Shown: positions 2,455-58,636 of the stretch, piece by piece | Numbering within the stretch: position 1 is the stretch's first letter | Layout: every line of letters begins with the position of its first letter | Source: Sumerlaeia bacterium | GTDB taxonomy: Bacteria > Sumerlaeota > Sumerlaeia > SLMS01 > JAHLLQ01 | Direction: 5' to 3' | DNA length: 64,000 nt | Assembly: GCA_040219255.1 (NCBI GenBank) | Contig: JAVJSW010000033.1 | Coordinates: forward strand, 12,675-76,674 | The notes under the pieces: generated by a model | Databases searched by the model: none | What the model was told of the DNA's origin: nothing | The model's input: the letters and a program-made list of their open reading frames with translations, nothing else | Position numbers and translations under genes: made by a program

Positions 2455-3576
2455 ATGAAACACCGCCACATCGCTCTCCTGCTCGCCCTCGCGCTCACCG
2501 CCCCCGCCTTCCCCAATCCCACGGAAGACGCCTATGAGGCGTACCTGGAAGGCGACTACGCCGAAGCCCTGGAAGAGGCCCGCGACGGCGCGGAGGACGG
2601 ATCGGCGGCGGCCCAGTTCCTTCTGGGCCGCATGTATGCCGAAGGCGCGGGCGTGGAGGCCGATCTGGCTCAGGCGGCGGCCTGGTACGAAAAAGCGGCG
2701 GAGCAACAGTACGCCCCGGCGCAGCTCAACCTCGGGCTGCTGCTGGTGAAGGATGAAGGCGTCGCGCAGGGCGATGAGCGGGCGCGCCGGCTGTTCGCCT
2801 TCGCGGCGGAGGCGGATCTGCCAGAGGCGCAATACGCCTTGGCCCGGATGCTGCGCGAAGGGCGCGGCGGCGAGGCCGATCCGGACCGGGCGGCGAAGCT
2901 GTTTCGCCAGGCGGCGGATGGCGGGCTGCTCCTGGCGCAGATGGAAGTGGCCCGCATGTATGCCACAGGCGAGGGCGTGCAGCGCGATCCGAAGCGCGCC
3001 GCGAAGTACTATCGCCTCGCCGCCGCGCAGGGCGACGCCGAGGCCATGATGTCGCTGGGCCGCATGTTTCGCGGGGGTGGGGCTCTACCAACCGATCCCG
3101 AAGAAGCCGCCAAGTGGACCCGGCGGGCGGCCGAGCAAGGCCTTGTGGAAGCGAAGGCCGAGTACGGCCGGATGCTGATCGAAGGCGAAGGCGTCTTGCA
3201 GGATTACGCGGAAGCGGGTGTGTGGCTGAAGCAGGCGGCGGATGCGGGAGAGCCGCGCGCCCAGCACAATCTGGGGCTGATGGCGCTGAAGGGGCTGGGC
3301 CAGGAAAAGAAGCCCGCCGAGGCGGCCCAATGGTTCCGCCGCGCCGCGCATCAGGGACTGCCCGAGTCCCAGTTCTTCCTCGCCCGGTCGTACGAACTCG
3401 GCCACGGCGTCCCCGCCAGCCAAGTCATCGCGGCCCAGTGGTATATCATGGCCGCGGAGAAGGGTTCGGCGCCCGCGGCACAGGCTCGCGACCGTCTCTT
3501 CGCCGCAATGGCGCCTTCGGAAGTGGCCCAGGCCAAGCGCCTCGCGCGGGATTGGACGCCGCCGGCCGGGCCATAG
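2455..3576 (+). CDS. Secreted Sel1-like repeat protein
   Basis: Signal peptide MKHRHIALLLALAL; repeated AQxxLGxMYxxGxGV...A..WY..AA.QG motifs. Confidence 0.92.
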   Translation: MKHRHIALLLALALTAPAFPNPTEDAYEAYLEGDYAEALEEARDGAEDGSAAAQFLLGRMYAEGAGVEADLAQAAAWYEKAAEQQYAPAQLNLGLLLVKDEGVAQGDERARRLFAFAAEADLPEAQYALARMLREGRGGEADPDRAAKLFRQAADGGLLLAQMEVARMYATGEGVQRDPKRAAKYYRLAAAQGDAEAMMSLGRMFRGGGALPTDPEEAAKWTRRAAEQGLVEAKAEYGRMLIEGEGVLQDYAEAGVWLKQAADAGEPRAQHNLGLMALKGLGQEKKPAEAAQWFRRAAHQGLPESQFFLARSYELGHGVPASQVIAAQWYIMAAEKGSAPAAQARDRLFAAMAPSEVAQAKRLARDWTPPAGP

Positions 3577-28378: not shown

Positions 28379-29722
28379 CTAATCCCCAACCCGCCGAACG
28401 CTCCACGTCGCCTTCGGCGCCATCACGCAATCGCCAAAGGGCAAATCCGTCCGCGTCTCCACGCTCAAGGCATCCTCGACCCGGTGCAGCACCACCGGCG
28501 GATTGCCGGTATCGAGGACGGCGGCGGTGAAGTGCACGTCGGCCTTGAGCAGCGGCCAATGGGGGACGTCGTAGGCGACCGGTTCGCCCGCGCGGCCGGG
28601 GGCGATGGGGGGGCTGGCTTCTTCGAAAAGCACCTGGCCATCGGGCCAGGACGCCGCGAACGCCAGGCGATAAGGCGCCTCGGCGCCTTCGTCGTCGATG
28701 TCGAAGAGCAGACGCAGCGGCTCGCCCGTCGTGATCGCGTCGATTTCCGAGCCCTCGGCATTCACCGCCCGCAGACCGAGCAGCCTCGGCACCCGCCGCC
28801 CGCGCCAGGCCCCCAGGCCGTGCGCCTCCAGAGCCTCGTCCGTGGCCTCCGCAACGGGGGCGTGGGCGTGGCTGAGGAAATGGCCGGGCAGGATCGACAG
28901 ATGAGCGAGGCTGCGCAGGTAGCGCTGGGAGACCTCGCGCGGGTCGCCCTGCTCGACCAGGCGCCCGTGATCGAGCCAGATCAGCCGGTCGCACAGATCG
29001 CGGGCCGTGGGCACCTCGTGCGTGACCAGGACGATGGTGACGCCGCGCTCGTGCAGTTCGAACACGCGCATCATGCCACGCTGCTGAAATTCCGCATCCC
29101 CCACCACCAGGATTTCGTCCACCAGGATGATTTCCGGGTCCAGGTGCATCGCCACGCTGCACGCCAGCCGGGCGTACATGCCGCTGCTGTAATGCTTCAC
29201 GGGCTCGAAGAGGAATTTGCGCAGGCCGCTGAATTCGATGATGGCTTCGAGGCGGGCGTGCGTTTCCTCGCGCGAGAGGCCCATGATGGCGCCGTTGTAG
29301 AAAATGTTCTCCATCCCAGAGAGTTCGGGGTGGAAACCCACGCCCAGCTCGAGCAGCGACGTCACGCGCCCCCGCACCGCGACGCGGCCGCTGGTGGGCT
29401 GGGTGATGCCGGCGGCCAGCTTGAGCACCGTGCTCTTGCCCGCGCCGTTGTGCCCCACGAAGCCCAGCATCTCGCCCTTCGCCACGCGGAAACTGACGTC
29501 GTGCAGGGCGTCGAAAGGCACGCGGCGCAGGTGCTCGAAGAGTTTGTTCACCACCCAGGCACCGAGGCGGGGCGTGGCGCGCTGCTGGATTTCGTAGGTC
29601 TTCGTGACGTTTTCAAAGACAATAGCGAGCTGACCCGGATCCGTGGCCACGCGCGCCCCGCGAGCGATGTCTTGCAGGGTGCGGTCTTCGGTGGCGGATG
29701 CGGCGGTCGAAAGGTCGGTCAT
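28379..29722 (-). CDS. Polysaccharide export ABC ATPase with C-terminal domain (Wzt/TagH-like)
   Basis: GHNGAGKST, LLELGVGFHPELSG.ENI, PVKHYSSGMYARL, VDEILVVGDAEFQ; Wzt_C-like tail. Confidence 0.9.
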   Translation of the reverse strand: MTDLSTAASATEDRTLQDIARGARVATDPGQLAIVFENVTKTYEIQQRATPRLGAWVVNKLFEHLRRVPFDALHDVSFRVAKGEMLGFVGHNGAGKSTVLKLAAGITQPTSGRVAVRGRVTSLLELGVGFHPELSGMENIFYNGAIMGLSREETHARLEAIIEFSGLRKFLFEPVKHYSSGMYARLACSVAMHLDPEIILVDEILVVGDAEFQQRGMMRVFELHERGVTIVLVTHEVPTARDLCDRLIWLDHGRLVEQGDPREVSQRYLRSLAHLSILPGHFLSHAHAPVAEATDEALEAHGLGAWRGRRVPRLLGLRAVNAEGSEIDAITTGEPLRLLFDIDDEGAEAPYRLAFAASWPDGQVLFEEASPPIAPGRAGEPVAYDVPHWPLLKADVHFTAAVLDTGNPPVVLHRVEDALSVETRTDLPFGDCVMAPKATWSVRRVGD

Positions 29723-30000
29723 GGCGTCTCCCGAAAGAGGGGTGGGACGCCGCGGGATGTGGGTCAACCGCTACGTCGTGTGGCGCCGTGCCGTTCCTCG
29801 ATCCAAATTCACGCGCGGAAAGGGCGGCGGGGCGACTTCGGCTCATCCTCCCTAAGAACCAGATGGAGAGACTGTTTGATGCCCCGTCAGCGCCGCGAAA
29901 TCCTCTGAATGGGCGGAGTCAAGAGGACTGGACGTGGCTTTCGCGTTGGGCCATGACCAGCCGACCGGATTCTGAGACTCGAAAATCGAGAAAAAAAGCG

Positions 30001-30054
30001 TTGACTCGCTCCATGTCGGGGGGCTATCCGATCCCATCCCCTACTTGGAAGGAA
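30001..30054 (+). promoter_or_regulatory. Possible promoter and SD for the 30062-33308 operon
   Basis: TTGACT at 30001; weak -10; GGAAGGA a few nt before the ATG at 30062. Confidence 0.35.
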
Positions 30055-30061
30055 GCATACC

Positions 30062-30358
30062 ATGAAGTCGCTTCAATCCCTTTTTGTAGCCGTCGCAATC
30101 CTGTTCGTCGCCAGTTTCGCACTCACCTCTTCCGCACCCACTGTCGCATCCGTCGCCGAGATGGAAGCCGTTGCCGGTGCCCTTTGTCCAGGCGATGCCT
30201 GTTCTGGCACTACCAACATCCGTTGCGCAGCAATTGATAGGACCTGTGCAGGAAATGCCGCGCGCTGCATCAACAACAATGGCAATGGAGAATGTACCAG
30301 CAACGGAGTCGGCGGTTGTTTTAACGGCTGTTCAGACCTGAATCAGACATGCGCATAG
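30062..30358 (+). CDS. Small secreted Cys-rich protein; putative peptide precursor with double-glycine-like leader
   Basis: Sec signal, then SVAEMEAVAG/A, then a core with 9 Cys rich in Gly/Asn; good SD. Confidence 0.8.
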   Translation: MKSLQSLFVAVAILFVASFALTSSAPTVASVAEMEAVAGALCPGDACSGTTNIRCAAIDRTCAGNAARCINNNGNGECTSNGVGGCFNGCSDLNQTCA

Positions 30359-30372
30359 CAAGACCTCGCACA

Positions 30373-31743
30373 ATGGGATCCAGCTGGAGTCTACGGATCT
30401 CCGTTCGAGTAGAGCTGCTTACTTCCTTCCTTATTCTGTTGGCCACTATTGTCGTTGCCGATGGTAGGGGAGTTGTAGGCGGCTCTCCTATGTTGGATCG
30501 CATAGAAAGAATTTACGCCTCGAGACCGAGCTTCTACTCCAAGGTACGCTTGGTCAAGCGAACCTGGCAATCTAACTCCCTCGAATCCGATTACCGTGAT
30601 GTAGATCCTGTCGTTCATAACTACGAAATGTTCGCGGACCATCCGAATTACGAATTGAAATACGAACCCGACCCGTCCTCAGGAGCCAACTTTACCACCA
30701 CAGCCAGGTCATTGGTTTTAGTGGGCGATGAATGGGTCAATTACGCGGAAGGTGTGTGGAAAGGAGAGAGTCATCGCGGCGTCCAATACGACAGGGGTGA
30801 AGACGCCCGTTGGCATTTTCTTGAAATCATGCGGCTTTTCCCCCCACTTCTCGCCGACAATGTGGGGGGGGCGGATGTTCCTTTTCTCCAGGTGCTGCGC
30901 GAATACCTGAAAGAGGGGGCCCAAGTCGAAACGACGGAGATTCGCGAGGACGGGCAATCTCTGCTGAAGTTGCAGGCGGATACTGAATACGGTGACTACG
31001 CCATTTATCTGGACCCGTCCCGTGGTTACCTGGTCAGGAAGGCGGTTGTGGAGCGGGGTCCCAGCGACTTATTCGTGAGAGGCTTGACTGTAACCCAAGA
31101 TTATTCGGATTTTCCAGACGATATTGGTTTACCCAAACCAGAGGTCGATGTCTACGCCCGCTACGAACTCACGGACGTCGAATTCGGTGAGGCCAACGGC
31201 GTCGCCTACATTAAGGAAGGAACCGCGACCTCCCTTTTTCAAAGTAAGAGCGGAAAAGTCAGTCATGTGAGATATGAGATGCAAGTCGAGGAGTTTTCGC
31301 CTCTAACCGAAGATATCATAACCGAATCCCGAGCTTTCGACCTAACCCGATTCCCAGAGCCGGATACTGTCGTGCATTTGGGGGCTTCCCACATCAGCTA
31401 TCGATTCGTGAATGGTATCATGGTGCCGCTTGTCCCGCCCGACCTGTATCGGGATATTCCCGCGCTTTCCGAAGCAGAAGCCCTCTCCGGGGAGGCATTG
31501 GTTCAGTCCCCCAGGGAAAACGCTCAAGGCAAGTCAGGAGTTAGCTCCGACGAAGCGGCGGCAGGGTCGTCGGGGGGACCGATGCCCTCAAATACCCCGG
31601 CCGCGTCACCGAATGGTCCGGCAGCCGAGTCGACCCGTTTCCTCATGCCCATCATGATGATCGTTGGCTTCGTCGCAGCGTTCTTTGTGCTTGCTGGTTC
31701 CATTCTGGCAATCGTCATTGCGAAAAAAAGCAGGAAAATCTAG
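30373..31743 (+). CDS. Hypothetical exported protein with C-terminal TM anchor (start 30349 or 30373)
   Basis: Hydrophobic N-terminal segment, beta-rich body (IYLDPSRGYLVRK), low-complexity linker, TM plus KKSRKI. Confidence 0.75.
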   Translation: MGSSWSLRISVRVELLTSFLILLATIVVADGRGVVGGSPMLDRIERIYASRPSFYSKVRLVKRTWQSNSLESDYRDVDPVVHNYEMFADHPNYELKYEPDPSSGANFTTTARSLVLVGDEWVNYAEGVWKGESHRGVQYDRGEDARWHFLEIMRLFPPLLADNVGGADVPFLQVLREYLKEGAQVETTEIREDGQSLLKLQADTEYGDYAIYLDPSRGYLVRKAVVERGPSDLFVRGLTVTQDYSDFPDDIGLPKPEVDVYARYELTDVEFGEANGVAYIKEGTATSLFQSKSGKVSHVRYEMQVEEFSPLTEDIITESRAFDLTRFPEPDTVVHLGASHISYRFVNGIMVPLVPPDLYRDIPALSEAEALSGEALVQSPRENAQGKSGVSSDEAAAGSSGGPMPSNTPAASPNGPAAESTRFLMPIMMIVGFVAAFFVLAGSILAIVIAKKSRKI

Positions 31744-32877
31744 TTGCTCCGTACCGTCTTCAATTGTGTTGTCAAGATTCTATTCGCGGCATTTCTTGCC
31801 GTCGGTTTCCCGATGTCAACTCAAGCGGCCGATTCAAGTGTGGTGGGTCCATATTGTGGGGTTATGTCACTTCACTATTGGGGGAACACTCACGATGTCG
31901 AATTCGACATTGTGAGCCTGATCTCTCCAGAGTACATCGGCTCACGGCGAGGAAGTACCTTGCTGGAATTGCAGGCCGCCGCCGAATCGCTTGGTCTCTA
32001 CAGCGAAGGGTTGAAAGGGTTGAAGCCTGATCATCTGGGAAAATGGGACAACGATGTTGGGATTATACTCCATATAGCTGCGGATCCCGAGACGTCCACA
32101 ACCTACAATCACTATGTGCTTTTCCTGGACGATGAAGGCGCCGATGTCTTGCTGTTCGACCCTTTCGAAGGAGTCGTCAGGTACTCGAAGGGCCAACTCT
32201 TGGCTCAGATGAGCGGTTTTGGTCTCATTGTCTCTAAGGAGCGAGGCTTACTTTCTTTCTCTCAGGGATTTGCCAGTCCCGCCGTCATTTTCGCAGTAAT
32301 GATTTTCTCTCTGTTCTTTGTCTCTAGGCGTTTCGCCCATGCCCGAATCGAAGACATGGGACACAATTTTGATCGGTGGATGGGTTTTGCTTTAGGCGGG
32401 GCCGTCTTTATAGTGTCGGTCGGAGCGATGGGAATGGCATCGTTGCTTTGGCACTCCATCTCTCCCGCTGGTTTTTTTCGTAACAGCGACGTGATCGCAA
32501 CCATACGTGAGAGAAACTTCTCTCACTTTTTGCCTGAATACTCGGCAAGCGAGGTGGCGGAGTTGCTACGGCAAGACAACAGGTTCGTTGTGATCGTCGA
32601 TGCCCGCTTCTCATTCGACTATGAGGCCGGTTCGCTCCCGGGAGCGATCAGTATTCCCGTGGATGCTTCGAACGCTCAGATCGAATCGGCGCTACGGGAC
32701 GTTGACAGGTCCGCCGAGGTGGTCGTTTTCTGCCAAAGTTCCGGCTGTCCCTTCGCCGAACGAATAGCCAAGAGATTGAAGAATGACTTCGGCATGAATA
32801 ATCTCGCACTGTTTTCCGGAGGATGGTTAGAATGGCTTTCCCACTCAAAGCAACACGTGGAACCGAACACCCTATAA
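31744..32877 (+). CDS. C39-like cysteine peptidase - 2 TM - rhodanese fusion
   Basis: GPYCGVMSL (catalytic Cys), GSTLLELQAAAESLGL, NHYVLF (His), LFDP (Asp); C-terminal IVDAR..DYEAGSLPGAISIP...VVFCQSSGC...LFSGGWLEW. Confidence 0.85.
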   Translation: MLRTVFNCVVKILFAAFLAVGFPMSTQAADSSVVGPYCGVMSLHYWGNTHDVEFDIVSLISPEYIGSRRGSTLLELQAAAESLGLYSEGLKGLKPDHLGKWDNDVGIILHIAADPETSTTYNHYVLFLDDEGADVLLFDPFEGVVRYSKGQLLAQMSGFGLIVSKERGLLSFSQGFASPAVIFAVMIFSLFFVSRRFAHARIEDMGHNFDRWMGFALGGAVFIVSVGAMGMASLLWHSISPAGFFRNSDVIATIRERNFSHFLPEYSASEVAELLRQDNRFVVIVDARFSFDYEAGSLPGAISIPVDASNAQIESALRDVDRSAEVVVFCQSSGCPFAERIAKRLKNDFGMNNLALFSGGWLEWLSHSKQHVEPNTL

Positions 32878-33308
32878 TCTCGCTGCTTCGCTTGGTCTTA
32901 TGTGTCACGTGGTTTCTCGCGGGATTTGTCAAGCTGCAGAACCCGTACTTGTTCCTGGATGACGTGATTCAATACAGGTTGGTGGGATTCGGGGTGGCAT
33001 TACTCATCGCGACCATTCTTCCAGTCATGGAAATTTCTTTGGCCGCCGCGATCGGAACCCGGTTCTGCCTGCCTTTTGCTGCAGGACTCAGCAGCCTCCT
33101 GCTCACGGTTTTTCTGGTAGCCCAATCGAGTGCCGTCATCAGGCAGCTCGACATATCTTGCGGATGCTTTTCCAGTTCAATAGGTGGCCAAGGTGGAGGA
33201 GTCGTCGACTACTTCACGCTCCTCAGGACGGGCGCCTTGCTGGCGATCAGCCTCTTCTTGACGATTCGGACCTTCAAGTCATATACCCGGTTACGCGACG
33301 TCATCTAG
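32823..33308 (+). CDS. MauE/DoxX family membrane protein (start 32823 or 32832)
   Basis: FLAGFVKLQNP..F...Y.L, LPVMEI, LDISCGCF. Confidence 0.85.
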   Translation: MVRMAFPLKATRGTEHPIISLLRLVLCVTWFLAGFVKLQNPYLFLDDVIQYRLVGFGVALLIATILPVMEISLAAAIGTRFCLPFAAGLSSLLLTVFLVAQSSAVIRQLDISCGCFSSSIGGQGGGVVDYFTLLRTGALLAISLFLTIRTFKSYTRLRDVI

Positions 33309-33323
33309 GCCTGATGTGCCCCT

Positions 33324-33521
33324 TCACCCTGCCATTTCCCCACCGGTTTTTTCTGCGGAGGCTGGGCGGGAAAGGCGGGGGCGATGGCGGACGGCGCCGC
33401 CGGAGCGGAGACGCAGTCGGTCGAGGGCGGAACGGGCGAGGGTGAGGGCGAGGTCGAGCTGCTCGTACGGGTCCATGTCCCATGAGAGGGAGTCTTCGAA
33501 GTCGTGGTGCTGGGCGATCAT
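33324..33521 (-). CDS. Small hypothetical protein
   Basis: GGAGG SD upstream of ATG (MIAQHHDF...); host-like GC. Confidence 0.4.
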   Translation of the reverse strand: MIAQHHDFEDSLSWDMDPYEQLDLALTLARSALDRLRLRSGGAVRHRPRLSRPASAEKTGGEMAG

Positions 33522-33704
33522 GGGCGGGGTGCCTCCGTGGGCGTTGAATGTGGAGGCAGTGTAGGGGAGAGGGCGGGGCGTGGCGCGTGACAAAGTGCGG
33601 TTAAACTTGTGGGTTTTAACGGTGTGGGGCAGCGCGGAGGGGCGCGGGTTTTCTGTTCTTAACGCAAAGTGGCAGAGCAGCGAAGGTGCAAAGGGGGGCG
33701 TTTG

Positions 33705-33890
33705 GTGGCGGCAAGGAGCACGAGGTGCCCTGTCACCATCTGCTGGCCGAGTACCTGGACGCCTACATCGAGGCGGCCGGGCTCGGGGGCCGGGCGAAGG
33801 TGGCGCTATTTCAGGGTGCGCCGGGGCGGGGTCTTGAGCGGGGTGCGGCTGACGCGCGGCAGCGCCTGGTCCATGGTGCGGCGCCGGTGC
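33705..33890 (+). pseudogene. Tyrosine recombinase/integrase fragment
   Basis: GGKEHEVPCHHLLAEYLDAYIEAAGL...ALF, then a frameshift to LTRGSAWSMVRRR; both ends of the gene are missing. Confidence 0.75.
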
Positions 33891-33986
33891 GCTGTTTTTC
33901 CAATTCCAGTCCAGAAAGCCGTTGCCATCCGCAGGGGCTTGGCATTATGCGTTTCCCCAAAGCGACCAGACCGTAATTAGACCCCG

Positions 33987-35372
33987 ATGACGATGCGCCT
34001 AGGCTTCCTCTTCCCAGCGGCTGTGACCACGGCTGCGCTGATTTCTTCCCAAGCGGACGCGGTCGAGTTCCGCCTTTCCGAGGAAGCCGCCCCTGGCGCC
34101 GCGCAGGTTTATCTGGCGGGAAGCTTCAACGGGTGGACATCCAACAGCCTCCCGCTCAACACCGATGCGAATGGCGATTGGTTCGCGTTCGTCCCGCTGG
34201 CGGATGGTCAGTACGCGTACAAGTTCGTGATAGAAGCGGGTGGGGGAGAAGTTTACTGGACCCCGGACCCGGCCAACAATGCCTACGCGCCCTCGGAAGC
34301 GGGATTCTACGATAGTCTGGTTGCCGTGGCCGACGATGCGACCACGGTTCCGGCGGGTGGCGTGGAAGTGTTCGAGTGGCGTGGCGAGGTGGAAAGCTTT
34401 GCCGGAGTGATCGGGGATTTCAACGGCTGGACCGTGGGCGGGTTTCCGATGTTGCAGGAAGGGGATGGTGTTTGGCGGGCGCGGATCGCTTTGCAGCGTC
34501 CGCTGACCTACAAGTTCTTTATCGACGACATTTGGAAGCCAGACCCGGCGGCGGAGAATTTCCCGGATGGCTTCGGGAGCTTGAACAGTATCCGCGAGGC
34601 GGACCTCATGGTGGCGGGCGATCCGGAGGACTGGACGGCGGAGGGCGACCAATCCAGCGGATTTGCCGCCCTGAGCACGAAAAGCAAGCTGTCTCCTGAA
34701 GAGGGCCGCAAGGAGGCCCAAAAACTGGCCGATAAAGGCAAGTACGGCAAAGCGGTGCGGACGCTGCGCCAGTCCGTTCGGAAAGGCTCCATCACCGATC
34801 AGCGGGCGGCACTCACGCTGGAAGCGGAGATTCACAAGCGCTTTGGCAAATCGAACCGGGCGGCCAAGTGCTGGGAGCAAATCCTAGCCCTGCCGGCCGA
34901 CAAGACGACTGGCCGCACCGGGTTTGACACGGGCGAGGGCTCGGCCGACGTGGATCAGATCATTCATGACCTCGCCAAGTACCGCCTGTTCATGGAAGAC
35001 GACGGCGCCGCGGCGCGCCTACTCTACGATCAACTGCTGCAAGCCGCGGGCGATGACCGTCAGGTGGCTTCGATCCTTTGAGACATTGGCTATTCCTACG
35101 GCGTTGAGAAGCGATGGGAAGAAGCCCTGCTGCTTCTCGAAGAAGCGATCACGGTGGCGCCGGCGGGGGAGGGCGGCGACAATCAGTGGCTGCACTTCCT
35201 GACGGAGCTTCACAACGCCCAAGGCACGGCGCTCTATCGTTTGGGACGTTTTGCCGACGCGAAAGCTTCCTTCGGAACCACGCTGGCGATCACTCCCTGG
35301 CCTCAAAACCAGAATTCCCAATATGCTCGCGGCTGGATCGAACGCTGCGACGCGCAATTGACGGCGGAATAA
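33987..35372 (+). CDS. Secreted protein with two CBM48/E-set (glycogen-binding-like) domains and TPRs; in-frame TGA at 35079-35081
   Basis: VYLAGSFNGW...YAYKFV...W..DP and VIGDFNGW...YKFFIDDIWKPDP; the TPR pattern continues in the same frame past the TGA to TAA at 35372. Confidence 0.75.
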
Positions 35373-35393: not shown

Positions 35394-36890
35394 ATGACCG
35401 CCCGCTTCCTGTCCGCTATTCTTCCGTGCCTGTTGGCGGGCCTGCTTTTTTTCGCGACGATGCCGCTTCTGGCGGGCGATCCGCCGCCGGACCCAACGCC
35501 GACATCCGCTCCTGGCCCCGATCCGGAGCCGACGCCGGAACCTTGCCACGACAAGTTTGGCAACGAGGTGCCGTGTCCCGAAGAAGACCCGGAACCAGCG
35601 CCCGAGCCCGAACCCGAACCTGAGCCGACGCCGGAGGAACCGACGCCGACGCCTCCCACGCCGACACCCACGCATGAGCCGTGTCATGATAGTGAGGGAA
35701 ATGAGATTCCCTGCCAGTATCCAGAAGAACCCACACCTGTCCCAAGTCCCACACCGGATCTTCCACCAACGCCGGAGCCGACTTCTCCTGATTCTGGTCA
35801 TTGCTACAATAGCGCGGGGGAGGTTGTGTCGTGTGACGCGACGCCAACGCCGGTTCCTCCACCGACAGAGCCGCCACCGCCGGACCCGAGTCCGACGCCA
35901 GATGATGATCCGCCGCCGGGAGGGGATGGTCCTCCGCCTCCAACGGATTCGCAGACGATAGATTGTGCGGGTTCAGATGTTACGTTCACGATAGAGATTC
36001 AGAAAGAACCCGATGATCCTATATGTGCAGGAAGTATTGTATGGGGGCAAGATGGCTTTGCGGCTATCAGGTCCGATCCATTGGAAGCATACCTACTTGT
36101 AACTAATATAGTCACCGAGCCTTTAAGCAACGAGCGACTATGCGACGTTGGCGAGCAAGTTATTTCTTGGAAGGGTGAAATGGAGTGTGGTACTGATGAG
36201 AATGGGAATGCAATTTTCGTAGATATATATCTTAGTTTAGAAGTGGTTTTTGAAGACTGCTGTGACCAGGCACAATGCCAGGAATTCGACACAGAATTGT
36301 GCTCATGTGTAGAAGATTGCACAGATTGTCAAAGACCTGAGCCAGTTACCTGCCATGTTGAGGATGAGGATGGCTGTGGCTATGTATTTGATCCATGTGC
36401 TCTTTGGGGTGGACCGTTTAATCCAGGACAAGTGGGAGGAATTGTTTGCTGTGGTGGCACAATGCATGTATGTGTAGAGGAAGGGGCTCATGGCGATTGC
36501 AAGAGCAACCCTGATTCTCCTGCGTGTAGAGAGATTTACGATTGCACGCGCGCACATGAGCAAGCAGAGGTCAATTGTGGGTTAGGAGAGTGCCCAGATC
36601 ATGACGGCAAAGATACTGGTATAGCAGGTCCTTCAGGCGACACCGATGAAGACAGAGAGCAGAATGAAGCCTGCTCTGATTGCGCAGGCTTGACAGCACA
36701 AATTGACTGTCTAAACAATAAATTGAACGATCTGAGCAATATATGTCCTAATCAGGTAGAGGATCCGGCTGGATTTCAGGAATGTCTAAACGCTTTGCTA
36801 AAAGAACTGGGCAATGCCGAGAATTACCGCTCTAGGAAGTGCAAGCGATGCTGCGATGCAATGAACTGTGACAAGCCTTGTCCCAACTAA
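35394..36890 (+). CDS. Secreted Pro-rich / Cys-rich protein
   Basis: Signal peptide; PT/PE linkers with three C-x-[DN]-x-x-G-x-x-[VI]-x-C repeats; about 30 Cys in the low-GC C-terminal region. Confidence 0.75.
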   Translation: MTARFLSAILPCLLAGLLFFATMPLLAGDPPPDPTPTSAPGPDPEPTPEPCHDKFGNEVPCPEEDPEPAPEPEPEPEPTPEEPTPTPPTPTPTHEPCHDSEGNEIPCQYPEEPTPVPSPTPDLPPTPEPTSPDSGHCYNSAGEVVSCDATPTPVPPPTEPPPPDPSPTPDDDPPPGGDGPPPPTDSQTIDCAGSDVTFTIEIQKEPDDPICAGSIVWGQDGFAAIRSDPLEAYLLVTNIVTEPLSNERLCDVGEQVISWKGEMECGTDENGNAIFVDIYLSLEVVFEDCCDQAQCQEFDTELCSCVEDCTDCQRPEPVTCHVEDEDGCGYVFDPCALWGGPFNPGQVGGIVCCGGTMHVCVEEGAHGDCKSNPDSPACREIYDCTRAHEQAEVNCGLGECPDHDGKDTGIAGPSGDTDEDREQNEACSDCAGLTAQIDCLNNKLNDLSNICPNQVEDPAGFQECLNALLKELGNAENYRSRKCKRCCDAMNCDKPCPN

Positions 36891-36915
36891 CAACTCAAAG
36901 AAGGCTGGAGAATAA

Positions 36916-37614
36916 GTGATTATGCGTAAAATTTTTGAGCTTGCATTAGCCGTGACCGGAGCCCTGGCGCTTTGTGGAAGTTTGTCTGCGAATACTTGTC
37001 CTTTTGACATATATTTGCCTGTGCTTCCTGCTAGCCATAGCACTATAGTAGTCCCTACATCTGAACCTGAATTTGCGATATATCAAAATACCAATCCGAC
37101 CCATGTGGTTTTTGCTCTATGGGGAAACGGGGTTGCTATCGTGTCAAGCCGCGCTCTTGGAAGCGCCGCTTTAGATGGCGCCTTGGTCATGACTGAAGCC
37201 GTTGATTTATCTACTACGTATGGGTTGGTTCAATTTGACACTGATAAGTATAGCGAATTTTTCGCAAGCCTTGATGCCGCAGAAATTTTCCAGGCGGAAC
37301 TATCTGATAGTATCTATAAAATGCCAAGTTTTCCAACAACCTTTATCAAATTTTGTGGAGATGGTAAATACTTTGGAATGACATCATATCACCAATATGC
37401 AGAATTTCGGGGCTTTGAGTTGCGGACGACGGGCATCTTTCCGGCTGGCATGGCAGATGTGGTTCCTGCTTTGACAGAGGAGGAAATTACATTCAGGGCA
37501 AAGTGGAGCTTAGTTGTCGATTTTGTAGATTCTATTTTCTTGCAGGAAATTGACACGGCTTTTGTCGGCGACATGGGGCCTGTCCATTGGGATATGAATG
37601 TTACTAATCAATAA
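36916..37614 (+). CDS. Hypothetical exported protein, low GC
   Basis: GGAG SD, signal peptide MRKIFELALAVTGALALCGSLSA, 232-aa open frame in AT-rich DNA. Confidence 0.7.
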   Translation: MIMRKIFELALAVTGALALCGSLSANTCPFDIYLPVLPASHSTIVVPTSEPEFAIYQNTNPTHVVFALWGNGVAIVSSRALGSAALDGALVMTEAVDLSTTYGLVQFDTDKYSEFFASLDAAEIFQAELSDSIYKMPSFPTTFIKFCGDGKYFGMTSYHQYAEFRGFELRTTGIFPAGMADVVPALTEEEITFRAKWSLVVDFVDSIFLQEIDTAFVGDMGPVHWDMNVTNQ

Positions 37615-37803
37615 GGGAGTGCCTGCGGCTTGTGGATTCCGCCTCCTGATTGAACTACACGCTCTAAAGTTGTCCGTATGCCAAGGCTTTGAGTTCGGCC
37701 GCGAATTTCCAATAGATTGGAAATGATATGAAATTTATAAATAATTGTGTACCCCTTGTCCATTCTTTTGCTTCAAACGATGGTTGGTTGGGCCAGAAGA
37801 CAA

Positions 37804-38931
37804 CTACTGAAAGAAGAACCGCCGCATAGCGATATTGAGCACCAGCCCCATGAGGATATAGCAGCTCAGCAAGAAGGAGCCGCCGTAGCTGAGGAAGGGG
37901 AGGGGGAGGCCGGTGACGGGGAGGAGGCCGATGGTCATGCCGATGTTGAGGGTGACGTGGCCGAGGAGGATGGCTCCGAGGCCGATGACGACGAGGCCTC
38001 CGAAGCGGTCGCGGGCGTTTTCGGCGGCGCGGAGGAAGCGCAGCAGAATGACGCCGTAGAGACCGATGATGACGATGGCTCCGGCGAGGCCGGTTTGCTC
38101 GACGGAGCTGGCGAAGATGAAGTCGGTGTGGGCTTCGGGGAGGTAGCGGAGGACGGCCTGGGTGCCTTCGCCCCAGCCGCGGCCGGTGAGGCCTCCGTTG
38201 CCGACGGCGATGAGGCTCTGGCGAACGTTGTAGCCCGAGCCGGTGGGGTCGCGGCCGGGATCGACGAAGGTGAGGAGGCGTTCTTTCTGGTAGTCTTTGA
38301 GGAAGGGGACGACGCTGGCGCAGGAGGCGATGCCTCCGAGAATGAGGGCGATGAGGATCCAGCGTTTGACCCCGGCCCAGTACATCATGCCGAAGAAGAG
38401 GATGATGAAGAGGGAGGCGGTGCCCAGGTCGGGTTGTTTGAGGATCAGCATCATGGGGATGGCGACGATGATGCCGGGGAGGATGAGGTCTTTGATGCCG
38501 CGGACGCCGTGGGGTCGGGTGGCCCAGTATTGGGCGAGGAGGAGGACGGTGACGACCTTCATGGTTTCGGAGGGCTGGAAGCTGACGGGGCCGAGGCGGA
38601 ACCAGGAGCGGGCGCCATTGACGGTGGTACCGGCGATGAGGACGAAGACGAGGAGGCCGAGGTTGGCGATGTAGGCCCAGGGGGCGAGGCGGCCGAGCCA
38701 GCGGTAGTCGAGCATGAGGGCTGCGGCGAGGCCGCAGAGGGCGATGCCGAACCATGTGATCTGGCGTCCGGCGGCGGCGACGAGGGCGTCGTTGCCCTGG
38801 ACGCAGCCGAAGAGGAGCCAGAGGCCGAGGACAGTGAGGAGGACGACAGAGCCGAGAAGGATCCAGTCCATGTAGCGGGCGGCGGCGAGGAAGGTGGCGA
38901 GGCGGAAGGGCGGGTCCTGGGTGTCCTCCAT
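37804..38931 (-). CDS. rodA: Rod shape-determining protein RodA (SEDS family)
   Basis: GARSWFRLG..SFQPSE, KQPDLGTA, YQKERL...DP..SGYNVRQS.IAVG.GG, LPEAHTDFIF, PVTGLPLPFLSYGGS. Confidence 0.93.
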   Translation of the reverse strand: MEDTQDPPFRLATFLAAARYMDWILLGSVVLLTVLGLWLLFGCVQGNDALVAAAGRQITWFGIALCGLAAALMLDYRWLGRLAPWAYIANLGLLVFVLIAGTTVNGARSWFRLGPVSFQPSETMKVVTVLLLAQYWATRPHGVRGIKDLILPGIIVAIPMMLILKQPDLGTASLFIILFFGMMYWAGVKRWILIALILGGIASCASVVPFLKDYQKERLLTFVDPGRDPTGSGYNVRQSLIAVGNGGLTGRGWGEGTQAVLRYLPEAHTDFIFASSVEQTGLAGAIVIIGLYGVILLRFLRAAENARDRFGGLVVIGLGAILLGHVTLNIGMTIGLLPVTGLPLPFLSYGGSFLLSCYILMGLVLNIAMRRFFFQ

Positions 38932-39151
38932 GAGGACCGGATGGAGGCCGGAGGAGGCTGCCCGGGGGCTGATGACAGAGTTTTTTTGTTGGCGGCGGAA
39001 AGCCAAGGGGCCCGTTCTCCCAGTCGGATAAGGGAGATACGTGAGGGGGAAGGGGCAAGAATGGCAAGGCGAGAGGGGCGGGGGGACTTGACGCCCGGTT
39101 TGGAGCGGGTCAATCTCGGCGGAAATCTTCTTTTTTTGAAGGACGACGGAA

Positions 39152-40906
39152 ATGATGCGCTTTCAGCTTTGCCTTGCCGCGCTGTGTGTCGCGGCGATTC
39201 AGACGATCGCTCCGGCCCAGGTGCTGGATCTGACGGGGACGTGGACTTACCGGGAAGACCCGGAGGAAATCGGTGAGGAGCAGGGTTGGCAGAAGCCCGG
39301 CGCCGACACGGCGGATTGGGGCGAGGCGGAGGTGCCTGGCGATATCGGCGATTACGATGGGGTGGTGTGGTACCGCAAGACGGTGGACGTGCCCGGGGAT
39401 GTGGCGTCCGATCCGGAGGCGCGGCTGTTTTTCGGTCAGGTGGACGACATCACGGAGTTGTACCTGAACGGCGAGAAGGTGTACCGCCATCCGTTCTGGA
39501 ACACGCCGTTCTTTGTGGAGATCGGCGATCATGTGCCGCGTGAGGGCGGCGAGCTGTCGATCGTGGCGAAGGTGACGGACGTCGGCGGGCCCGGGGGGAT
39601 CCTGGGGCCGGTGCGGATCGGGCCGCTGGAGGACTGGAAGTCGCTGCTGACGACGCCGGCGTATGAACTGTCGCCCCGGTCGACGCTGGCCGAGGTGGGC
39701 AATCTGGTGATGTATTCCGTGTACGTGCGGAATTTTTCCGAGGAGGGAACTTTCGAGGGGTTGCGCGAGCGCCTGCCGGAATTGAAGGGGCTTGGTGTGA
39801 ATTGCCTGTGGCTCCTGCCGATCCACCCGATCGGCGAGGTGGAGCGGAAAGGCCCGGACGGCAGTCCATACGCCATCGCGGATTACCTGGATGTGAACCC
39901 GGACCTGGGGACGAAGGCGGACTTCAAGGCTATGGTGGAAGACGCCCACGAGCACGGCATGCGGGTGATTATCGACTGTGTATTCAATCACACGGCGCAC
40001 GACAGCGTGCTGACGCGCGAGCACCCGGAGTGGTTCCTGCAGGATGAGGAGGGCAATCCGCGGCCGGACGTGGCGGCCTGGCAGGACGTGGTGGATTTCG
40101 CCTATGGCGATCCGGAGGTGGAAGCGGAGCTGTATCCGTACCTGTGGAATGTGCTGGATTACTGGGTGCGGGAGTTCGATATCGACGGCTACCGCTGCGA
40201 CGTGGCGGACCTGGTGCCGGCGGAGTTCTGGGCGGAGGCGCGGCAGCGGCTGGAGGCGATCAAGCCGGGCGGGATCATCATGCTGGCGGAGTCGCAATCG
40301 AGCCATCACCACCTGAATGGCTTTGACATCACTTACAACGAGGGGCTGCACGAGTTGGCCCGGATGGTCATGGAGGGCGAGGCGGAGCCGCTGTCGCTGA
40401 AGATCGATGTGCTGCGGCGTCAGTACAGTATGCCGAAAGGTGCGCCGGAATTGCTTTTTTCGGAAAACCATGACAAGCAACGGGCGGTCAACTTCTACGG
40501 AGGCCCGGAGAAGGCGAAATTGGCGGGGGCTTTGGTGGCCACTCTGCCCGGTGTGCCGTTGCTGTACACGGGAACGGAAGTGGGCGCCGATGCCGAGCGC
40601 AACGAAACGTTCTTCACGGTGTCTCCCGTGGATTTCTCCAGCGATCCGCATGGGATGCGGGCGTTCTGGACGTCGCTGCTGGCGATGCGGGCGGCGAGCC
40701 CTGCTTTGCAGACCGGAGCCTTTATTCCGGTGGAGGCCAGCCCGGAAGGCGCGATTTTCGCCTTCGAGCGCCGCACGCGGCACGACCGGGCGCTGGTGAT
40801 CGCCAATTTGAGCGGCGAAACCGTGACGGCGGAGTTGGACCACGATCTGTCACCGACGAAGGATGTGACCCTTGGAGCTTATCGATGGACGATTTTCCGG
40901 AACTGA
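39152..40906 (+). CDS. Secreted GH13 alpha-amylase-family protein with N-terminal GH2-type sugar-binding domain
   Basis: YDGVVWYRK domain; LWLLPIHP, DCVFNHT, DGYRCDVA, LAE, ENHD. Confidence 0.9.
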   Translation: MMRFQLCLAALCVAAIQTIAPAQVLDLTGTWTYREDPEEIGEEQGWQKPGADTADWGEAEVPGDIGDYDGVVWYRKTVDVPGDVASDPEARLFFGQVDDITELYLNGEKVYRHPFWNTPFFVEIGDHVPREGGELSIVAKVTDVGGPGGILGPVRIGPLEDWKSLLTTPAYELSPRSTLAEVGNLVMYSVYVRNFSEEGTFEGLRERLPELKGLGVNCLWLLPIHPIGEVERKGPDGSPYAIADYLDVNPDLGTKADFKAMVEDAHEHGMRVIIDCVFNHTAHDSVLTREHPEWFLQDEEGNPRPDVAAWQDVVDFAYGDPEVEAELYPYLWNVLDYWVREFDIDGYRCDVADLVPAEFWAEARQRLEAIKPGGIIMLAESQSSHHHLNGFDITYNEGLHELARMVMEGEAEPLSLKIDVLRRQYSMPKGAPELLFSENHDKQRAVNFYGGPEKAKLAGALVATLPGVPLLYTGTEVGADAERNETFFTVSPVDFSSDPHGMRAFWTSLLAMRAASPALQTGAFIPVEASPEGAIFAFERRTRHDRALVIANLSGETVTAELDHDLSPTKDVTLGAYRWTIFRN

Positions 40907-56737: not shown

Positions 56738-58636
56738 TTAGAAATGCCGCTCCAGCCAAACCATGGTCCAGTACTTATACTGCGGCAGGGTGAACTTCAC
56801 GTACCACTTGCCTTCGTTCGAATCCCAGTGGCGGGTGTAGTTGGTGACTTCGACCGCCTTGCCGCTGTCGAAATCGGGCGAGGCGTACCAGACTTTCGAC
56901 GAACCCCAATCGTTGTCGTAGTACAGGCGCACTTCTTTGTTCGTCAACGTGGCGGGCGGGTTGAAATCGCCATAGGGGTCGCGCCAGGTTGTATGGTTGC
57001 AGCTTCGCAGATTGATGAAATGGGCGATGTCGTAATAGTTGACGCCATCGTAGCCATCGCGCCATTTGGCCAGTTTCCAGACACGATTCTTCGTGCCATC
57101 GTAACCGCTGGCCACACCGCCGAGATCGAAGTCCACTCGCTTATTGCCGTCGTACACGTTGTCGCGCAGGAGATTCTCGTAGGCGACGGCGAAATCGTAG
57201 TAGCGGCGCAGTTGGCTCTTGAGCGAACTGGACATGACCAGATTCTTGTTGGGAAAATATTCGTTCGAGAGCAGATGCTCTCCATCGCCGAGTTCGATGT
57301 GCCATCCGCCACAGGCGAAAATCACCGCGTCCGCCAGGAGAATGGACGCTTCCTTGAAGGTGCCGGGGCTGCCTCCGGAGTAGTTCTTCGACCGCTCGTA
57401 ATTCATGTAACCAGCGATGACCATATTCTTCGCGGTGCGGCCCTGGTTCGCGGTCAGGATTTGCTTCAGGTCGTAGAAGTCGTTCTCGTCGCCTTCGCCC
57501 CACAGCTCGGAATAGATGAAATCCACCTGGGCGTTCTGGGCCACCTGCGACTCACCGTAGTTCGAGACGGTGTTGACGACGTAGTCCTTGTCGTGTCCGA
57601 CTTGGTCCCGGATGTTGTTGATGAAGGCGGGGTACTCCTGGTCATAGTGCAAGGTGTTCTTGTTCCAGTCGTACAGCGTCCCCCGGCTTCCGAGCGTATC
57701 GATGTGCCAGCCGTCGAAATCGAAATTAGCGAAAACATGATTGAAATCGTCGGCCATCCAGTCACGCCATCCCTGGTGGCGGATGTTGAACAGATAGATC
57801 TTGTTCGTCTCCCAGCCGGGGATGTTCAGAGGGTGGTAGTCCTGGTCGGAGGGATCGTAGGTGCCGCTTTGCCAATGGGTAAAGGCGCCCCAAGACACCT
57901 GTACGCCATCGTTCCAGTATTCATCGTAGGCGCCAAACATCAATTGGTACGCCATGGCCGTCATATTGTAGGAGTGACCTTTCGAGATCAGTTCCTGGAT
58001 TTTGGCCTTCGAAACCCAAGGGTCGCGCCGGGCGATGTCCTGCCAGTACTGGAATCCGGGGAAGTACTGAATGTGATGCTCGTCGGCCCAGTCGTAGTAC
58101 TGGATACCGTTGATCTTGTACTTGCGCATCTTGCCGATCAGATCGTTGACGTTCACATTGTCGTGAAACTCTGTCAAGTATCCGTAACGGGGGAACTTCG
58201 TCCAGTCGTTGGAGACGTCGAAACTGGTGGATGAAACGTCGGTCGCGCCGCCGCTGTCCTTCCAGCACCACACCTCGGCCAGATAGCCGCGGTGGTTGGC
58301 CGATCCCATGCTGAAGTTGAAGGTCAGCGTCTTGGACGAACCGTTGCCGAAACTGACGTACTGGTGCTGATCTTTGTTCAGGTTCCGCCCCAGATGGCGG
58401 GGGTACACGCCGATGTTGCCGCTCCACCAGGAGCCGGTCGTGTTCTTCAGATGAACCTTCACCTGCACCGTTTCCCAGGTCTTGTACTGGGCCTTCACGG
58501 TGTAAACGTCGGTGATCAGTGGGGCGGCCGCCACCGAGGCGGTAAAGAGGAGGAGGAAAACGGTGGCGAGAAGCGTTGTCAGGAGAGGGCGCGAGCGCGC
58601 GAGTGAGCTGGTGAGACGAGTATTCATAAAGCTCAT
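56738..58636 (-). CDS. Secreted glycoside hydrolase family 66 (dextranase / cycloisomaltooligosaccharide glucanotransferase)
   Basis: DVSNDWTKFPRYGYL, INGIQYYDW, FDGWHIDTLG, YMNY, HIELG, NEYFPN, YYDFAVAYENLL, YASPD. Confidence 0.9.
   Translation of the reverse strand: MSFMNTRLTSSLARSRPLLTTLLATVFLLLFTASVAAAPLITDVYTVKAQYKTWETVQVKVHLKNTTGSWWSGNIGVYPRHLGRNLNKDQHQYVSFGNGSSKTLTFNFSMGSANHRGYLAEVWCWKDSGGATDVSSTSFDVSNDWTKFPRYGYLTEFHDNVNVNDLIGKMRKYKINGIQYYDWADEHHIQYFPGFQYWQDIARRDPWVSKAKIQELISKGHSYNMTAMAYQLMFGAYDEYWNDGVQVSWGAFTHWQSGTYDPSDQDYHPLNIPGWETNKIYLFNIRHQGWRDWMADDFNHVFANFDFDGWHIDTLGSRGTLYDWNKNTLHYDQEYPAFINNIRDQVGHDKDYVVNTVSNYGESQVAQNAQVDFIYSELWGEGDENDFYDLKQILTANQGRTAKNMVIAGYMNYERSKNYSGGSPGTFKEASILLADAVIFACGGWHIELGDGEHLLSNEYFPNKNLVMSSSLKSQLRRYYDFAVAYENLLRDNVYDGNKRVDFDLGGVASGYDGTKNRVWKLAKWRDGYDGVNYYDIAHFINLRSCNHTTWRDPYGDFNPPATLTNKEVRLYYDNDWGSSKVWYASPDFDSGKAVEVTNYTRHWDSNEGKWYVKFTLPQYKYWTMVWLERHF

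Follow-up and report, generated by a model that had tools for sequence, protein, structure and literature searches.

A four-gene cassette of a Sumerlaeia bacterium predicted to cleave and oxidise a cysteine-rich protein outside the cytoplasm

C39 peptidase domains, such as those of the peptidase-containing ABC transporters (the PCAT/AMS family, with ComA, LahT and PCAT1), cleave double-glycine leaders. A C39 peptidase that is exported and carries no transporter has also been described: according to the accessible text of the report on it, FapD of the Pseudomonas Fap amyloid system is exported by Sec to the periplasm and needs its catalytic Cys, its target being unclear (PMC5557850). For the oxidation of exported proteins, the accessible parts of a recent preprint report that MauE proteins of two phyla can take over from DsbB in Escherichia coli, as judged by motility and PhoA assays, that either Cys of its CXC motif is required, that this motif lies in the periplasmic loop that joins transmembrane (TM) segments three and four, where it is followed by F-G, and that quinone binding is predicted (bioRxiv 10.64898/2026.03.05.709764). 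MauE homologues also occur in candidate Streptomyces clusters for peptides made by ribosomes and then modified post-translationally (RiPPs), as far as the available text of that study goes (PMC7794033), and the periplasmic rhodanese PspE can, in the excerpt available, re-establish the formation of disulfides when DsbA is lacking (Chng 2012, cited in PMC5403849). Here we describe a cassette of four genes, g1 to g4, in a 64,000-nucleotide (nt) stretch of DNA from a Sumerlaeia bacterium (contig JAVJSW010000033.1; the whole stretch is called the window). It encodes a small Cys-rich precursor, an anchored partner protein, a fusion of a C39 peptidase to a rhodanese and a MauE protein (Table 1). Each of these parts has precedents, but the combination was not found described: a search of the open full-text literature, with subscription journals outside its coverage, returned no description joining C39, rhodanese and MauE, and the accessible text of the MauE preprint does not mention rhodanese, C39 or Planctomycet* (bioRxiv 10.64898/2026.03.05.709764).

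We consider it reasonably probable that the cassette encodes a single extracytoplasmic unit, in which the g1 product would be exported by Sec, cleaved by the C39 domain of g3 and oxidised by the rhodanese of g3 together with MauE (g4), with g2 as a LolA-like partner. A preliminary description, made from the letters of the window, had reported four packed, co-oriented genes in a low-GC patch near an integrase remnant, and the open reading frames (ORFs), the GC content and a recombinase match confirm this. The four ORFs occupy the same coordinates as in that description, all on the forward strand, and abut or overlap one another, with an overlap of 10 nt between g1 and g2, 0 nt between g2 and g3, and an overlap of 55 nt between g3 and g4. 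A Shine-Dalgarno-like purine-rich stretch (GGAAGGAAG) is located 7–15 nt ahead of the ATG of g1, which is also called as a gene by a public gene caller.

The same gene set returns in 37 other genomes, which indicates that the cassette is more than a chance arrangement. To locate related loci, a pattern search combined with tblastn was run over one genome for each species; it yielded 72 candidate stretches, 37 of them encoding a relative of g3. Thirty-five of the 37 loci bear names that we take to belong to the Planctomycetota, one is from the Hydrogenedentales and one is labelled Alcaligenaceae; their GC content ranges from 39 to 63%. When searched with the window proteins by tblastn, 35 of the 37 contain MauE, which in 33 starts at most 204 nt past the g3 match. 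It is placed otherwise in L017, where it follows g1 and two copies of g2, and in L024, where it is encoded upstream of g3 on the opposite strand, while the two loci without it, L025 and L036, stop at a contig end. Of the 35 loci that include flanking DNA, 33 have a g2 homologue; in L029 and L032 only an ORF of like architecture, a positional look-alike, is found at its place, and L004 and L023, with less than 70 nt upstream, were left out of this count. The preliminary description had named the recurrence of small Cys-rich ORFs beside homologous g3 genes as a test of its model, and such an ORF is found at the expected place in 31 loci. Twenty-eight of these ORFs are complete and three partial, that of L005 being cut by the contig start, the core of that of L021 being masked and that of L036 being a 58-amino-acid (aa) remnant beside a truncated g3. 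The 349 nt that L014 offers at this place contain no g1-like ORF, and readable DNA is lacking at the g1 place of five loci. The g1 ORFs were selected for their position and size, for a minimum of 4 Cys and for a helix at the N-terminus, judged by eye; a G-[GAS] pair (Gly followed by Gly, Ala or Ser) was not a criterion. Gene order varies while the gene set is kept, as in L017 (g3-g1-g2-g2'-g4) and L027 (g3-g4-g1-g2).

Parts of the cassette are duplicated in places, with two tandem g1 paralogues in L022 (3940–4708) and two g2 paralogues in L017 (4069–6394), and several metagenome-assembled genomes, going by their names, hold two separate cassettes (L005 and L010, L008 and L014, L013 and L020, L007 and L036). 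The extent of the g3 family was obtained with an exhaustive HMMER search, in which a 32-sequence profile run against 1.84 billion representatives returned 1365 proteins at E ≤ 1e-30. All except two of the best 150 of these span the profile almost end to end in a single stretch. A word-indexed protein search gave four relatives only and understates the family.

In g3, the C39 peptidase (Pfam PF03412; 33.7 bits against a cut-off of 22, residues 38–166) is followed by the rhodanese (PF00581; 52.3 bits against a cut-off of 22.2, residues 268–366), and hydropathy gives hydrophobic segments at residues 4–22, 169–187 and 217–235. The architecture of C39, two TM segments and rhodanese proposed in the preliminary description is confirmed in this way, as is its assignment of gene 4 to MauE with a CGCF motif. 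For g3, NCBIfam returns only sub-threshold rhodanese-type matches, and for g4 no family. In an alignment of 32 g3 sequences, which are 22–31% identical to that of the window, residues C38, G39, G70, S71, H110, H123, D286, R288, C330, C335 and G360 do not vary, and D139 is kept in at least 90%. Besides many rhodaneses, the g3 profile matches the double-glycine peptidase domains of ComA (9.6e-8), LahT150 (1.3e-6) and PCAT1 (4.6e-6). In PCAT1, the motifs opposite H123 and D139 of the window protein are H-F-V and A-D-P, whose H and D are presumably its catalytic residues. No ABC domain is detected in g3 with Pfam, which sets it outside the PCAT/AMS exporters. The C-x4-C loop of the rhodanese, formed around C330 and C335, is kept in 32 of 32 sequences and differs from the common rhodanese loops, and in the PDB matches C330 falls on the position of the catalytic Cys of rhodaneses. 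A loop of the same type, C-W-G-P-A-C, is present in the structural-genomics single-domain rhodanese BH2092 (PDB entries 3o3w/3nhv), which could serve as a template for judging whether the two loop Cys can form a disulfide. Two g3 relatives, P0008 and P0025, have an extra N-terminal extension of 130–140 aa ahead of the C39 domain.

The arrangement of g3 in the membrane is similar across its relatives. A hydrophobic segment precedes the C39 Cys in 31 of 32, exactly two segments separate C39 from rhodanese in 28 of 32, and in each of the latter 28 the loop connecting the two segments contains more K and R (2–7) than D and E (0–3). Basic loops are cytoplasmic under the positive-inside rule. Since the hairpin loop is basic, the C39 and rhodanese domains are both predicted to lie outside the cytoplasm. 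Natural fusions of g2 to g3 point the same way. They account for 9 of the best 150 representatives, with lengths of 710–816 aa, and occur likewise in L012, L024 and L040. In one form (P0090, L024, P0078 and P0123) an N-terminal signal is followed by the g2 body, a hydrophilic linker and the C39 domain, with no hydrophobic segment between; in the other (P0032, P0126 and L012) the TM segment of g2, a basic loop and the first helix of g3 are retained. All clear fusions of both forms agree in placing C39 on the exported side, with g2. Less clear are P0047, without a visible signal, P0070, with an ambiguous weak segment, and P0122. Topology and fusions together lend support to the transporter-free C39 outside the cytoplasm that had been suggested beforehand.

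The g4 protein matches the MauE family (PF07291) with 69 bits, where the cut-off is 27, and contains four hydrophobic segments, with C113-G-C115-F between the third and the fourth. The four residues of the CGCF motif, together with Y51, are invariant in 32 MauE sequences of cassette loci. The preliminary description had treated MauE as specific to methylamine dehydrogenase, an assignment that the preprint, in its accessible part, replaces with that of a general DsbB-like oxidase; the proposed disulfide chemistry itself is strengthened by the invariant motif and by the replacement of DsbB reported there (bioRxiv 10.64898/2026.03.05.709764). In the cassette, the protein beside MauE is always a rhodanese, predicted to face the same side of the membrane and with two Cys that do not vary. 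A TM-rhodanese of the C-x4-C type followed by MauE is also found where g1 and g2 are missing: this genome has such a pair at a second locus, with the loop CEGGDC, and G040 has one with the loop CDTDEC. This suggests that the rhodanese (C-x4-C) and MauE form a general two-gene module. At the second locus of the host (L047, G000:C4:91500–96000; minus strand, 2597–3298 and 2068–2886), MauE directly follows a one-TM rhodanese, and a protein with a prepilin-type N-methylation motif is encoded near the pair. In the relative G040 (L041/L048, C52), g3 is split, and three adjacent separate genes encode an exported Peptidase_C39 (E 3.1e-16) joined to DUF1573 Ig-like domains, a TM-rhodanese (C-D-T-D-E-C) and MauE. 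The host genome, which is 92% complete, has VKOR, and no DsbB was found in it. Since VKOR and a second rhodanese-MauE pair are present, the MauE of the island is an extra and probably dedicated copy.

The g1 product is 98 aa long and has one hydrophobic segment (residues 7–25), a double-glycine-type motif and nine Cys (residues 42, 47, 55, 62, 69, 78, 86, 90 and 97), and hydropathy and sequence bear out the preliminary description on each of these points. The string VAEMEAVAGA-L-C42 directly precedes the core. No family match is found in Pfam or NCBIfam. In 29 g1 proteins, 28 from the related loci and that of the window, a G-[GAS] pair lies at most nine residues ahead of the first core Cys in 27, against 5.0 expected when the residues after the helix are shuffled; G-G itself is found in 15 of the 29, against 2.0 expected. 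The two exceptions have G-G slightly farther upstream. The distance from the helix to the first core Cys is 14–22 residues in 27 of the 29. When 27 g1 proteins are aligned with MAFFT, six Cys columns are conserved, C42, C55 and C62 being invariant and C78, C86 and C90 kept in at least 90%. In this alignment A38-G39 of the window protein falls on the G-G of its relatives, which leaves cleavage after G39 and after A40 both possible. The G-[GAS] pair is the predicted cleavage site of the g3 C39 domain, and a hydrophobic residue three positions ahead of it (–3) is usual among the relatives. Of the leader motif first proposed, E[ML]xx[VI]xG, the glycine-type ending holds widely, whereas most relatives keep only the hydrophobic –3 residue from the remainder. 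Judged by the alignment, g1 is a family of six-Cys domains of 55–90 aa that follow a module of helix, linker and G-G, rather than a hypervariable peptide. Two other assignments of g1 were rejected: as a lipoprotein it would lack a consistent lipobox, and a prepilin-like protein is contradicted by a cleavage site located after the helix, not ahead of it.

The g2 protein contains an N-terminal signal or anchor (residues 19–37), an acidic, Cys-free body of about 400 aa, a C-terminal TM segment (residues 438–456) and a basic tail, as judged by hydropathy, and matches nothing in Pfam or NCBIfam. The ORFs of this type in related loci, of 330–460 aa, have the same signal-like N-terminus, C-terminal TM segment and basic tail and are nearly always upstream of g3. 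At E ≤ 1e-3, 32 of 35 sequences at the g2 place fall into one BLASTP cluster, among them the N-terminal halves taken from two fusions, and a hidden Markov model built from 30 sequences (the window and 28 loci) also matches L022, L024, L030, L012 and L027, with E values from 5.6e-25 to 2.2e-11. An AlphaFold2 (AF2) model calculated with 30 relatives has a mean confidence (pLDDT) of 63.8, and its best PDB matches in Foldseek are Porphyromonas gingivalis LolA3 and LolB, 3bk5, a DUF1329 protein, RseB and MucB (E 1.7e-5 to 4e-3, probability up to 1.0, TM-scores 0.25–0.46). From this model, a LolA/RseB-like fold is probable. In the Atlas, the nearest g2 clusters are unnamed Planctomycetota proteins (score 0.95), while the nearest named clusters, TP_0789-like and LolA-like, score 0.80 and are a lead only.

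Where pairs of g3 sequences are 48–68% identical, the corresponding g2 sequences are mostly 27–44% identical (local identities, up to 60% over short stretches) and those of g1 can often be aligned only locally; in the closest pair, L025 and L038, the identities are 82% for g3, 67% for g2 and 66% for g1. The faster divergence of g1 and g2 fits a cognate binding pair. The natural g2-g3 fusions argue that g2 works physically with g3, and their repeated occurrence speaks for the role as a partner that the preliminary description had offered for gene 2.

In the mechanism that we propose, g1 would be inserted by Sec, with its N-terminal helix tethering it to the membrane and its Cys-rich part outside. 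The membrane-tethered, outward-facing C39 domain of g3 would cut it after G-[GAS], at G39 or A40, 14–22 residues past the helix, and would free a core of about 58 aa. The C-x4-C loop of the rhodanese would act as thiol-disulfide carrier, in the place usually taken by DsbA or MauD, and would be re-oxidised by the CGC loop of MauE, a DsbB-like and probably quinone-linked oxidase, whereby the g1 core would gain at least three conserved disulfides. The membrane-anchored g2 protein, whose divergence goes along with that of g1 and which is found fused to g3 repeatedly, may hold or present the precursor; a receptor or an immunity factor is possible as well. The cleavage of g1, the redox role of the rhodanese and the role of g2 are steps that we infer from sequence comparison.

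The proposed machinery resembles each of the described systems in part. Like the PCAT/AMS domains, the g3 C39 belongs to PF03412, has the Cys/His/Asp triad and is presumed to act on a substrate with G-G, G-A or G-S just before its mature part. Unlike them, it is predicted outside the cytoplasm and is fused to a rhodanese, with no ABC transporter in g3 and none conserved among the flanking ORFs scanned, no conserved oxyanion Gln and a g1 substrate in which the site is preceded by a Sec-type hydrophobic helix instead of a short soluble leader. The preliminary description had taken the PCAT family as the normal setting of C39; an exported C39 without a transporter is already known from the accessible account of FapD (PMC5557850). 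The likeness to FapD is one of description, not of sequence comparison, and lies in the N-terminal hydrophobic segment of 31 of 32 g3 sequences and in the predicted location outside the cytoplasm; FapD is a soluble, stand-alone protein of an amyloid-secretion operon, while the g3 C39 is predicted to be tethered to the membrane, fused to a rhodanese, accompanied by MauE and encoded beside a candidate substrate. No fap genes were found among the scanned ORFs of the window or those flanking related loci. As in the mau cluster, where MauA is the client, a four-TM MauE with an outside CGCF(G) motif is paired with a Cys-rich exported protein, but its neighbour is a C-x4-C rhodanese and not the thioredoxin-fold MauD or DsbA, and neither methylamine dehydrogenase subunits nor mauD were found among the same ORFs.

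PspE of E. coli is likewise a rhodanese of the periplasm that can sustain the formation of disulfides (Chng 2012, cited in PMC5403849). It contains one Cys, is effective only under overproduction and depends on DsbC, in contrast to the two invariant Cys of the tethered g3 rhodanese beside its dedicated oxidase. The proposed logic, in which a quinone-linked membrane oxidase re-oxidises an exported dithiol carrier that serves the clients, is that of DsbA-DsbB and of VKOR-thioredoxin, although both partners in the cassette have other folds and the pair appears dedicated to one substrate and coupled to a protease. With LolA, LolB and RseB, g2 shares the matches of a medium-confidence model to LolA3, LolB, 3bk5 and RseB at low TM-scores; it differs in having no sequence-family match, about twice the size of LolA and anchors at both ends. 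Class II bacteriocins and RiPP precursors also are ribosomal precursors with a removable N-terminal part that ends in a double-glycine-type site and are encoded beside a protease; g1 has a Sec helix, a predicted periplasmic cleavage in place of export by PCAT and a conserved six-Cys scaffold of 55–90 aa. RiPPs are defined by a precursor with leader and core together with dedicated enzymes that modify the core beyond proteolysis and disulfides. The neighbour scan covered 70 of 139 candidate flanking ORFs in 33 loci, the nearest being chosen, and within it no ABC exporter, radical-SAM or other tailoring enzyme beyond the protease and the oxidase is conserved around the cassette, nor was an immunity gene identified. 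RiPP class is, on that ground, not the best label: the earlier statement that no characterised RiPP class has this architecture holds in that no described match was found in the literature, but the label itself does not suit.

Several observations weigh against the cassette as one extracytoplasmic cut-and-oxidise unit. Canonical C39 domains have an oxyanion-hole Gln a few residues before the catalytic Cys. No conserved Gln precedes C38 in the 32 g3 sequences, and the PF03412 match begins only at model position 13; with the Gln counterpart not conserved, C39 activity could be weaker or different. The g1 leader is only loosely like LSxxELxxIxGG, the E-M-x-x-V-x-G of the window being the best case, its core has an odd number of Cys, and AF2 with 27 relatives is confident only in the N-terminal helix (residues 3–23), the core having a pLDDT below 50. 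The Cys-richness of the g1 set is in part selected, as at least 4 Cys was a criterion of choice, and the g2 model is only moderate in its pLDDT and TM-scores. The textbook activity of rhodaneses is sulfur transfer, and a rhodanese as disulfide carrier is unproven; the partner expected for MauE in the accessible preprint text is a thioredoxin-superfamily protein (bioRxiv 10.64898/2026.03.05.709764). Around the split form in G040, no g1- or g2-like gene is present in the DNA that could be read, 3.3 kb on the upstream side and 0.5 kb on the downstream side. It follows that the enzyme trio can occur without an adjacent precursor, and it may also serve clients encoded elsewhere. No RNA sequencing run with the locus was found, and one DNA metagenome run had 0.27 of the sampled words.

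Other explanations account for parts of these observations. The rhodanese might perform true sulfur chemistry, its persulfide putting sulfane sulfur on the core as trisulfide, persulfide or thio-links, with MauE only recycling the enzyme and the product forming a new RiPP-like class. The sulfurtransferase fold with its invariant catalytic Cys and the odd Cys number of the window core would suit this, as would the generation of sulfane sulfur by PspE stated in the accessible text of another report (PMC10215317). We nevertheless hold it to be unlikely: a second invariant Cys would fit dithiol-disulfide exchange better than the carriage of a persulfide, the partner MauE is a demonstrated disulfide generator in the accessible part of the preprint (bioRxiv 10.64898/2026.03.05.709764), the six conserved Cys of g1 suggest three disulfides, and no sulfur-donor gene is conserved among the flanking ORFs scanned. 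It might also be that g1 is oxidised by the rhodanese and MauE while its leader is cut by signal peptidase, the C39 domain acting on g2, on itself or on proteins encoded elsewhere, or binding without cutting. C39-like domains without proteolysis are known in type 1 secretion and the substrate of the periplasmic FapD is still unclear, according to the accessible text (PMC5557850), and the missing oxyanion Gln, the loosely canonical leader and the G040 trio, with no precursor nearby, all agree with it. Set against these are the conservation of Cys, His and Asp over 32 diverged g3 sequences, which argues for catalysis, the more than five-fold enrichment of G-[GAS] at a fixed place in g1, and the C39 domain being fused to or adjoining the g1/g2 pair in every readable locus, and we think this division of labour quite unlikely.

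Signalling of the RseA/RseB/DegS type, with g1 as a tethered ligand, g2 as an RseB-like sensor and C39 cleavage relaying an envelope (redox) signal to an extracytoplasmic function (ECF) sigma factor, appears improbable to us. The g2 model does match the RseB and MucB folds, but its LolA-type matches outscore RseB; ECF sigma genes adjoin the cassette in four of 33 loci (L003, L009, L024 and L034) and a FecR-type gene does so in L028, but regulator genes are missing from most loci and from the window, and g1 has almost no cytoplasmic part to which a sigma factor could bind. That g1 is not a real gene, or that its association is accidental, would be in keeping with its shortness, with the lack of a family match and with a core that is not modelled confidently. 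It is contradicted already by the G-[GAS] enrichment and the conserved Cys columns, and further by the recurrence of these columns and of the g1 architecture across loci of 39–63% GC, by the Shine-Dalgarno-like stretch and by the public gene caller, and we give it hardly any credence.

The cassette lies on an island of distinctly lower GC content, 0.51–0.55 across 30000–33000 against 0.63–0.73 on the flanks, and the GC content at third codon positions of g2 to g4 is 0.58–0.65, against 0.75–0.86 in clear host genes. Downstream of g4, residues 8–59 of an ORF (33686–33976) match annotated plasmid tyrosine recombinases with 52–62% identity (tblastn, best E 9e-8), while Pfam and PHROGs give no match. 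The cassette was not found in any of the 10 same-family genomes searched, whose completeness is 80–97%. Among 40 relatives, one has a g3 match over both domains, there in a g2-g3 fusion, and three match at E ≤ 1e-20; in the host phylum, five of 75 species genomes, this one included, have g3 at E ≤ 1e-40. Given the GC shift, the recombinase fragment and the absence from same-family genomes, acquisition by horizontal transfer is the simplest reading, and a Planctomycetota-type donor is most likely. The donor would be unsampled, since the closest g3 relatives found are just 34–35% identical. A scan of 20–45 kb found no tRNA, hence no tRNA-linked integration site. A perfect direct repeat of 16 nt (GGCGGGGCGTGGCGCG) is present at 29566–29581 and 33572–33587, on either side of the island, its left copy being inside the N-terminal coding part of a minus-strand ABC ATPase gene; it could be an integration scar, chance being judged unlikely by a rough estimate only.

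Some neighbouring genes were considered as parts of the cassette and dropped. The divergent ABC ATPase gene upstream (28379–29767, minus strand, high GC) is missing from related loci. DUF1559, PMT_2 and ECF sigma genes are found in just 8, 3 and 4 of the 33 loci, respectively, the PMT_2 genes encoding glycosyltransferases, and FecR in one. The DUF1559 pilin-like genes lie beside the cassette in L006, L019, L021, L022, L025, L027, L035 and L038, directly upstream of g1 in L021, L025, L035 and L038. Genes for DUF1559 proteins are very numerous in Planctomycetota, and their adjacency may be due to chance. The host genes near the island form a glucan-related set apparently unrelated to the cassette: a protein with CBM48/AMPK1_CBM and TPR (33987–35081), an alpha-amylase-family enzyme (39152–40906), a GH66 enzyme (56738–58636) and another CBM48 protein (58844–60181). 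Between the first two, an ORF of 498 aa (35394–36890; no match in Pfam or NCBIfam) contains a signal-like N-terminus, Pro/Glu/Thr-rich repeats in which Cys occur in pairs, and a C-terminal half with a very high content of Cys. It extends into a second low-GC patch (36000–38000, GC 0.44–0.51), which also holds ORFs at 36916–37614 (no Pfam or NCBIfam match) and 37664–39067 (minus strand, no Pfam match). The 498-aa protein may itself be a client that is oxidised in the envelope; alternatively, the ORF may belong to a second foreign insert.

Table 1. Features of the cassette and its island in the window, with position, strand and the basis of each assignment.
Feature	Position	Strand	Description and basis
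g1	30062..30358	+	98 aa; hydrophobic helix at the N-terminus, then linker, double-glycine-type site and Cys-rich core
g1 residues 7–25, Sec signal or signal-anchor helix	30080..30136	+	hydropathy 2.25; AF2 helix 3–23
g1 A38-G39-A40, where C39 is predicted to cut (after G39 or A40)	30173..30181	+	alignment with relatives
g1 core, residues 41–98, 9 Cys	30182..30355	+	Cys conservation in 27 sequences
g2, exported doubly anchored, probable LolA/RseB-like fold	30349..31743	+	464 aa; hydropathy, homologues, AF2/Foldseek
g3, fusion of signal/anchor, C39 peptidase, two TM and rhodanese	31744..32877	+	377 aa, TTG start; Pfam, alignment
g3 C39 peptidase domain, about residues 35–166, C38/H123/D139	31846..32241	+	PF03412, conservation in 32 sequences
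g3 TM hairpin, residues 169–235, basic loop predicted cytoplasmic	32248..32448	+	hydropathy; relatives
g3 rhodanese domain, residues 268–366, loop C330-Q-S-S-G-C335	32545..32841	+	PF00581; C330/C335 invariant
g4, MauE, four TM, C113-G-C115-F in TM3-TM4 outside loop	32823..33308	+	161 aa; PF07291, topology
Tyrosine-recombinase fragment, about 50 recognisable residues of the full-length enzyme	33686..33976	+	tblastn against plasmids
Low-GC island carrying the cassette	29900..33350	.	GC contrast

A more far-reaching interpretation, which we think somewhat less likely than not, takes the cassette to be a substrate-dedicated cut-and-oxidise machine of the envelope. The exported, tethered C39 would replace signal peptidase for one client, the C-x4-C rhodanese would be the natural carrier for MauE and the two would form a third disulfide couple beside DsbA/DsbB and thioredoxin/VKOR, while the g1 family, widespread among the Planctomycetota, would represent a new class of secreted mini-proteins that have three disulfides and evolve together with a LolA-like partner. 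If true, MauE, whose physiological carrier is still open, would have a natural client and a natural partner; a rhodanese in the role of its carrier would widen the range of folds that catalyse disulfide formation, and the exported C39 class known from FapD would gain a testable substrate. With four genes in 3.2 kb, the cassette is small enough to be moved as it stands into dsb mutants of E. coli. For the Planctomycetota, it would reveal a large unannotated family of secreted Cys-rich mini-proteins, the enzyme alone accounting for 1365 clusters at 50% identity, whose function could be in antagonism, signalling or surface biology.

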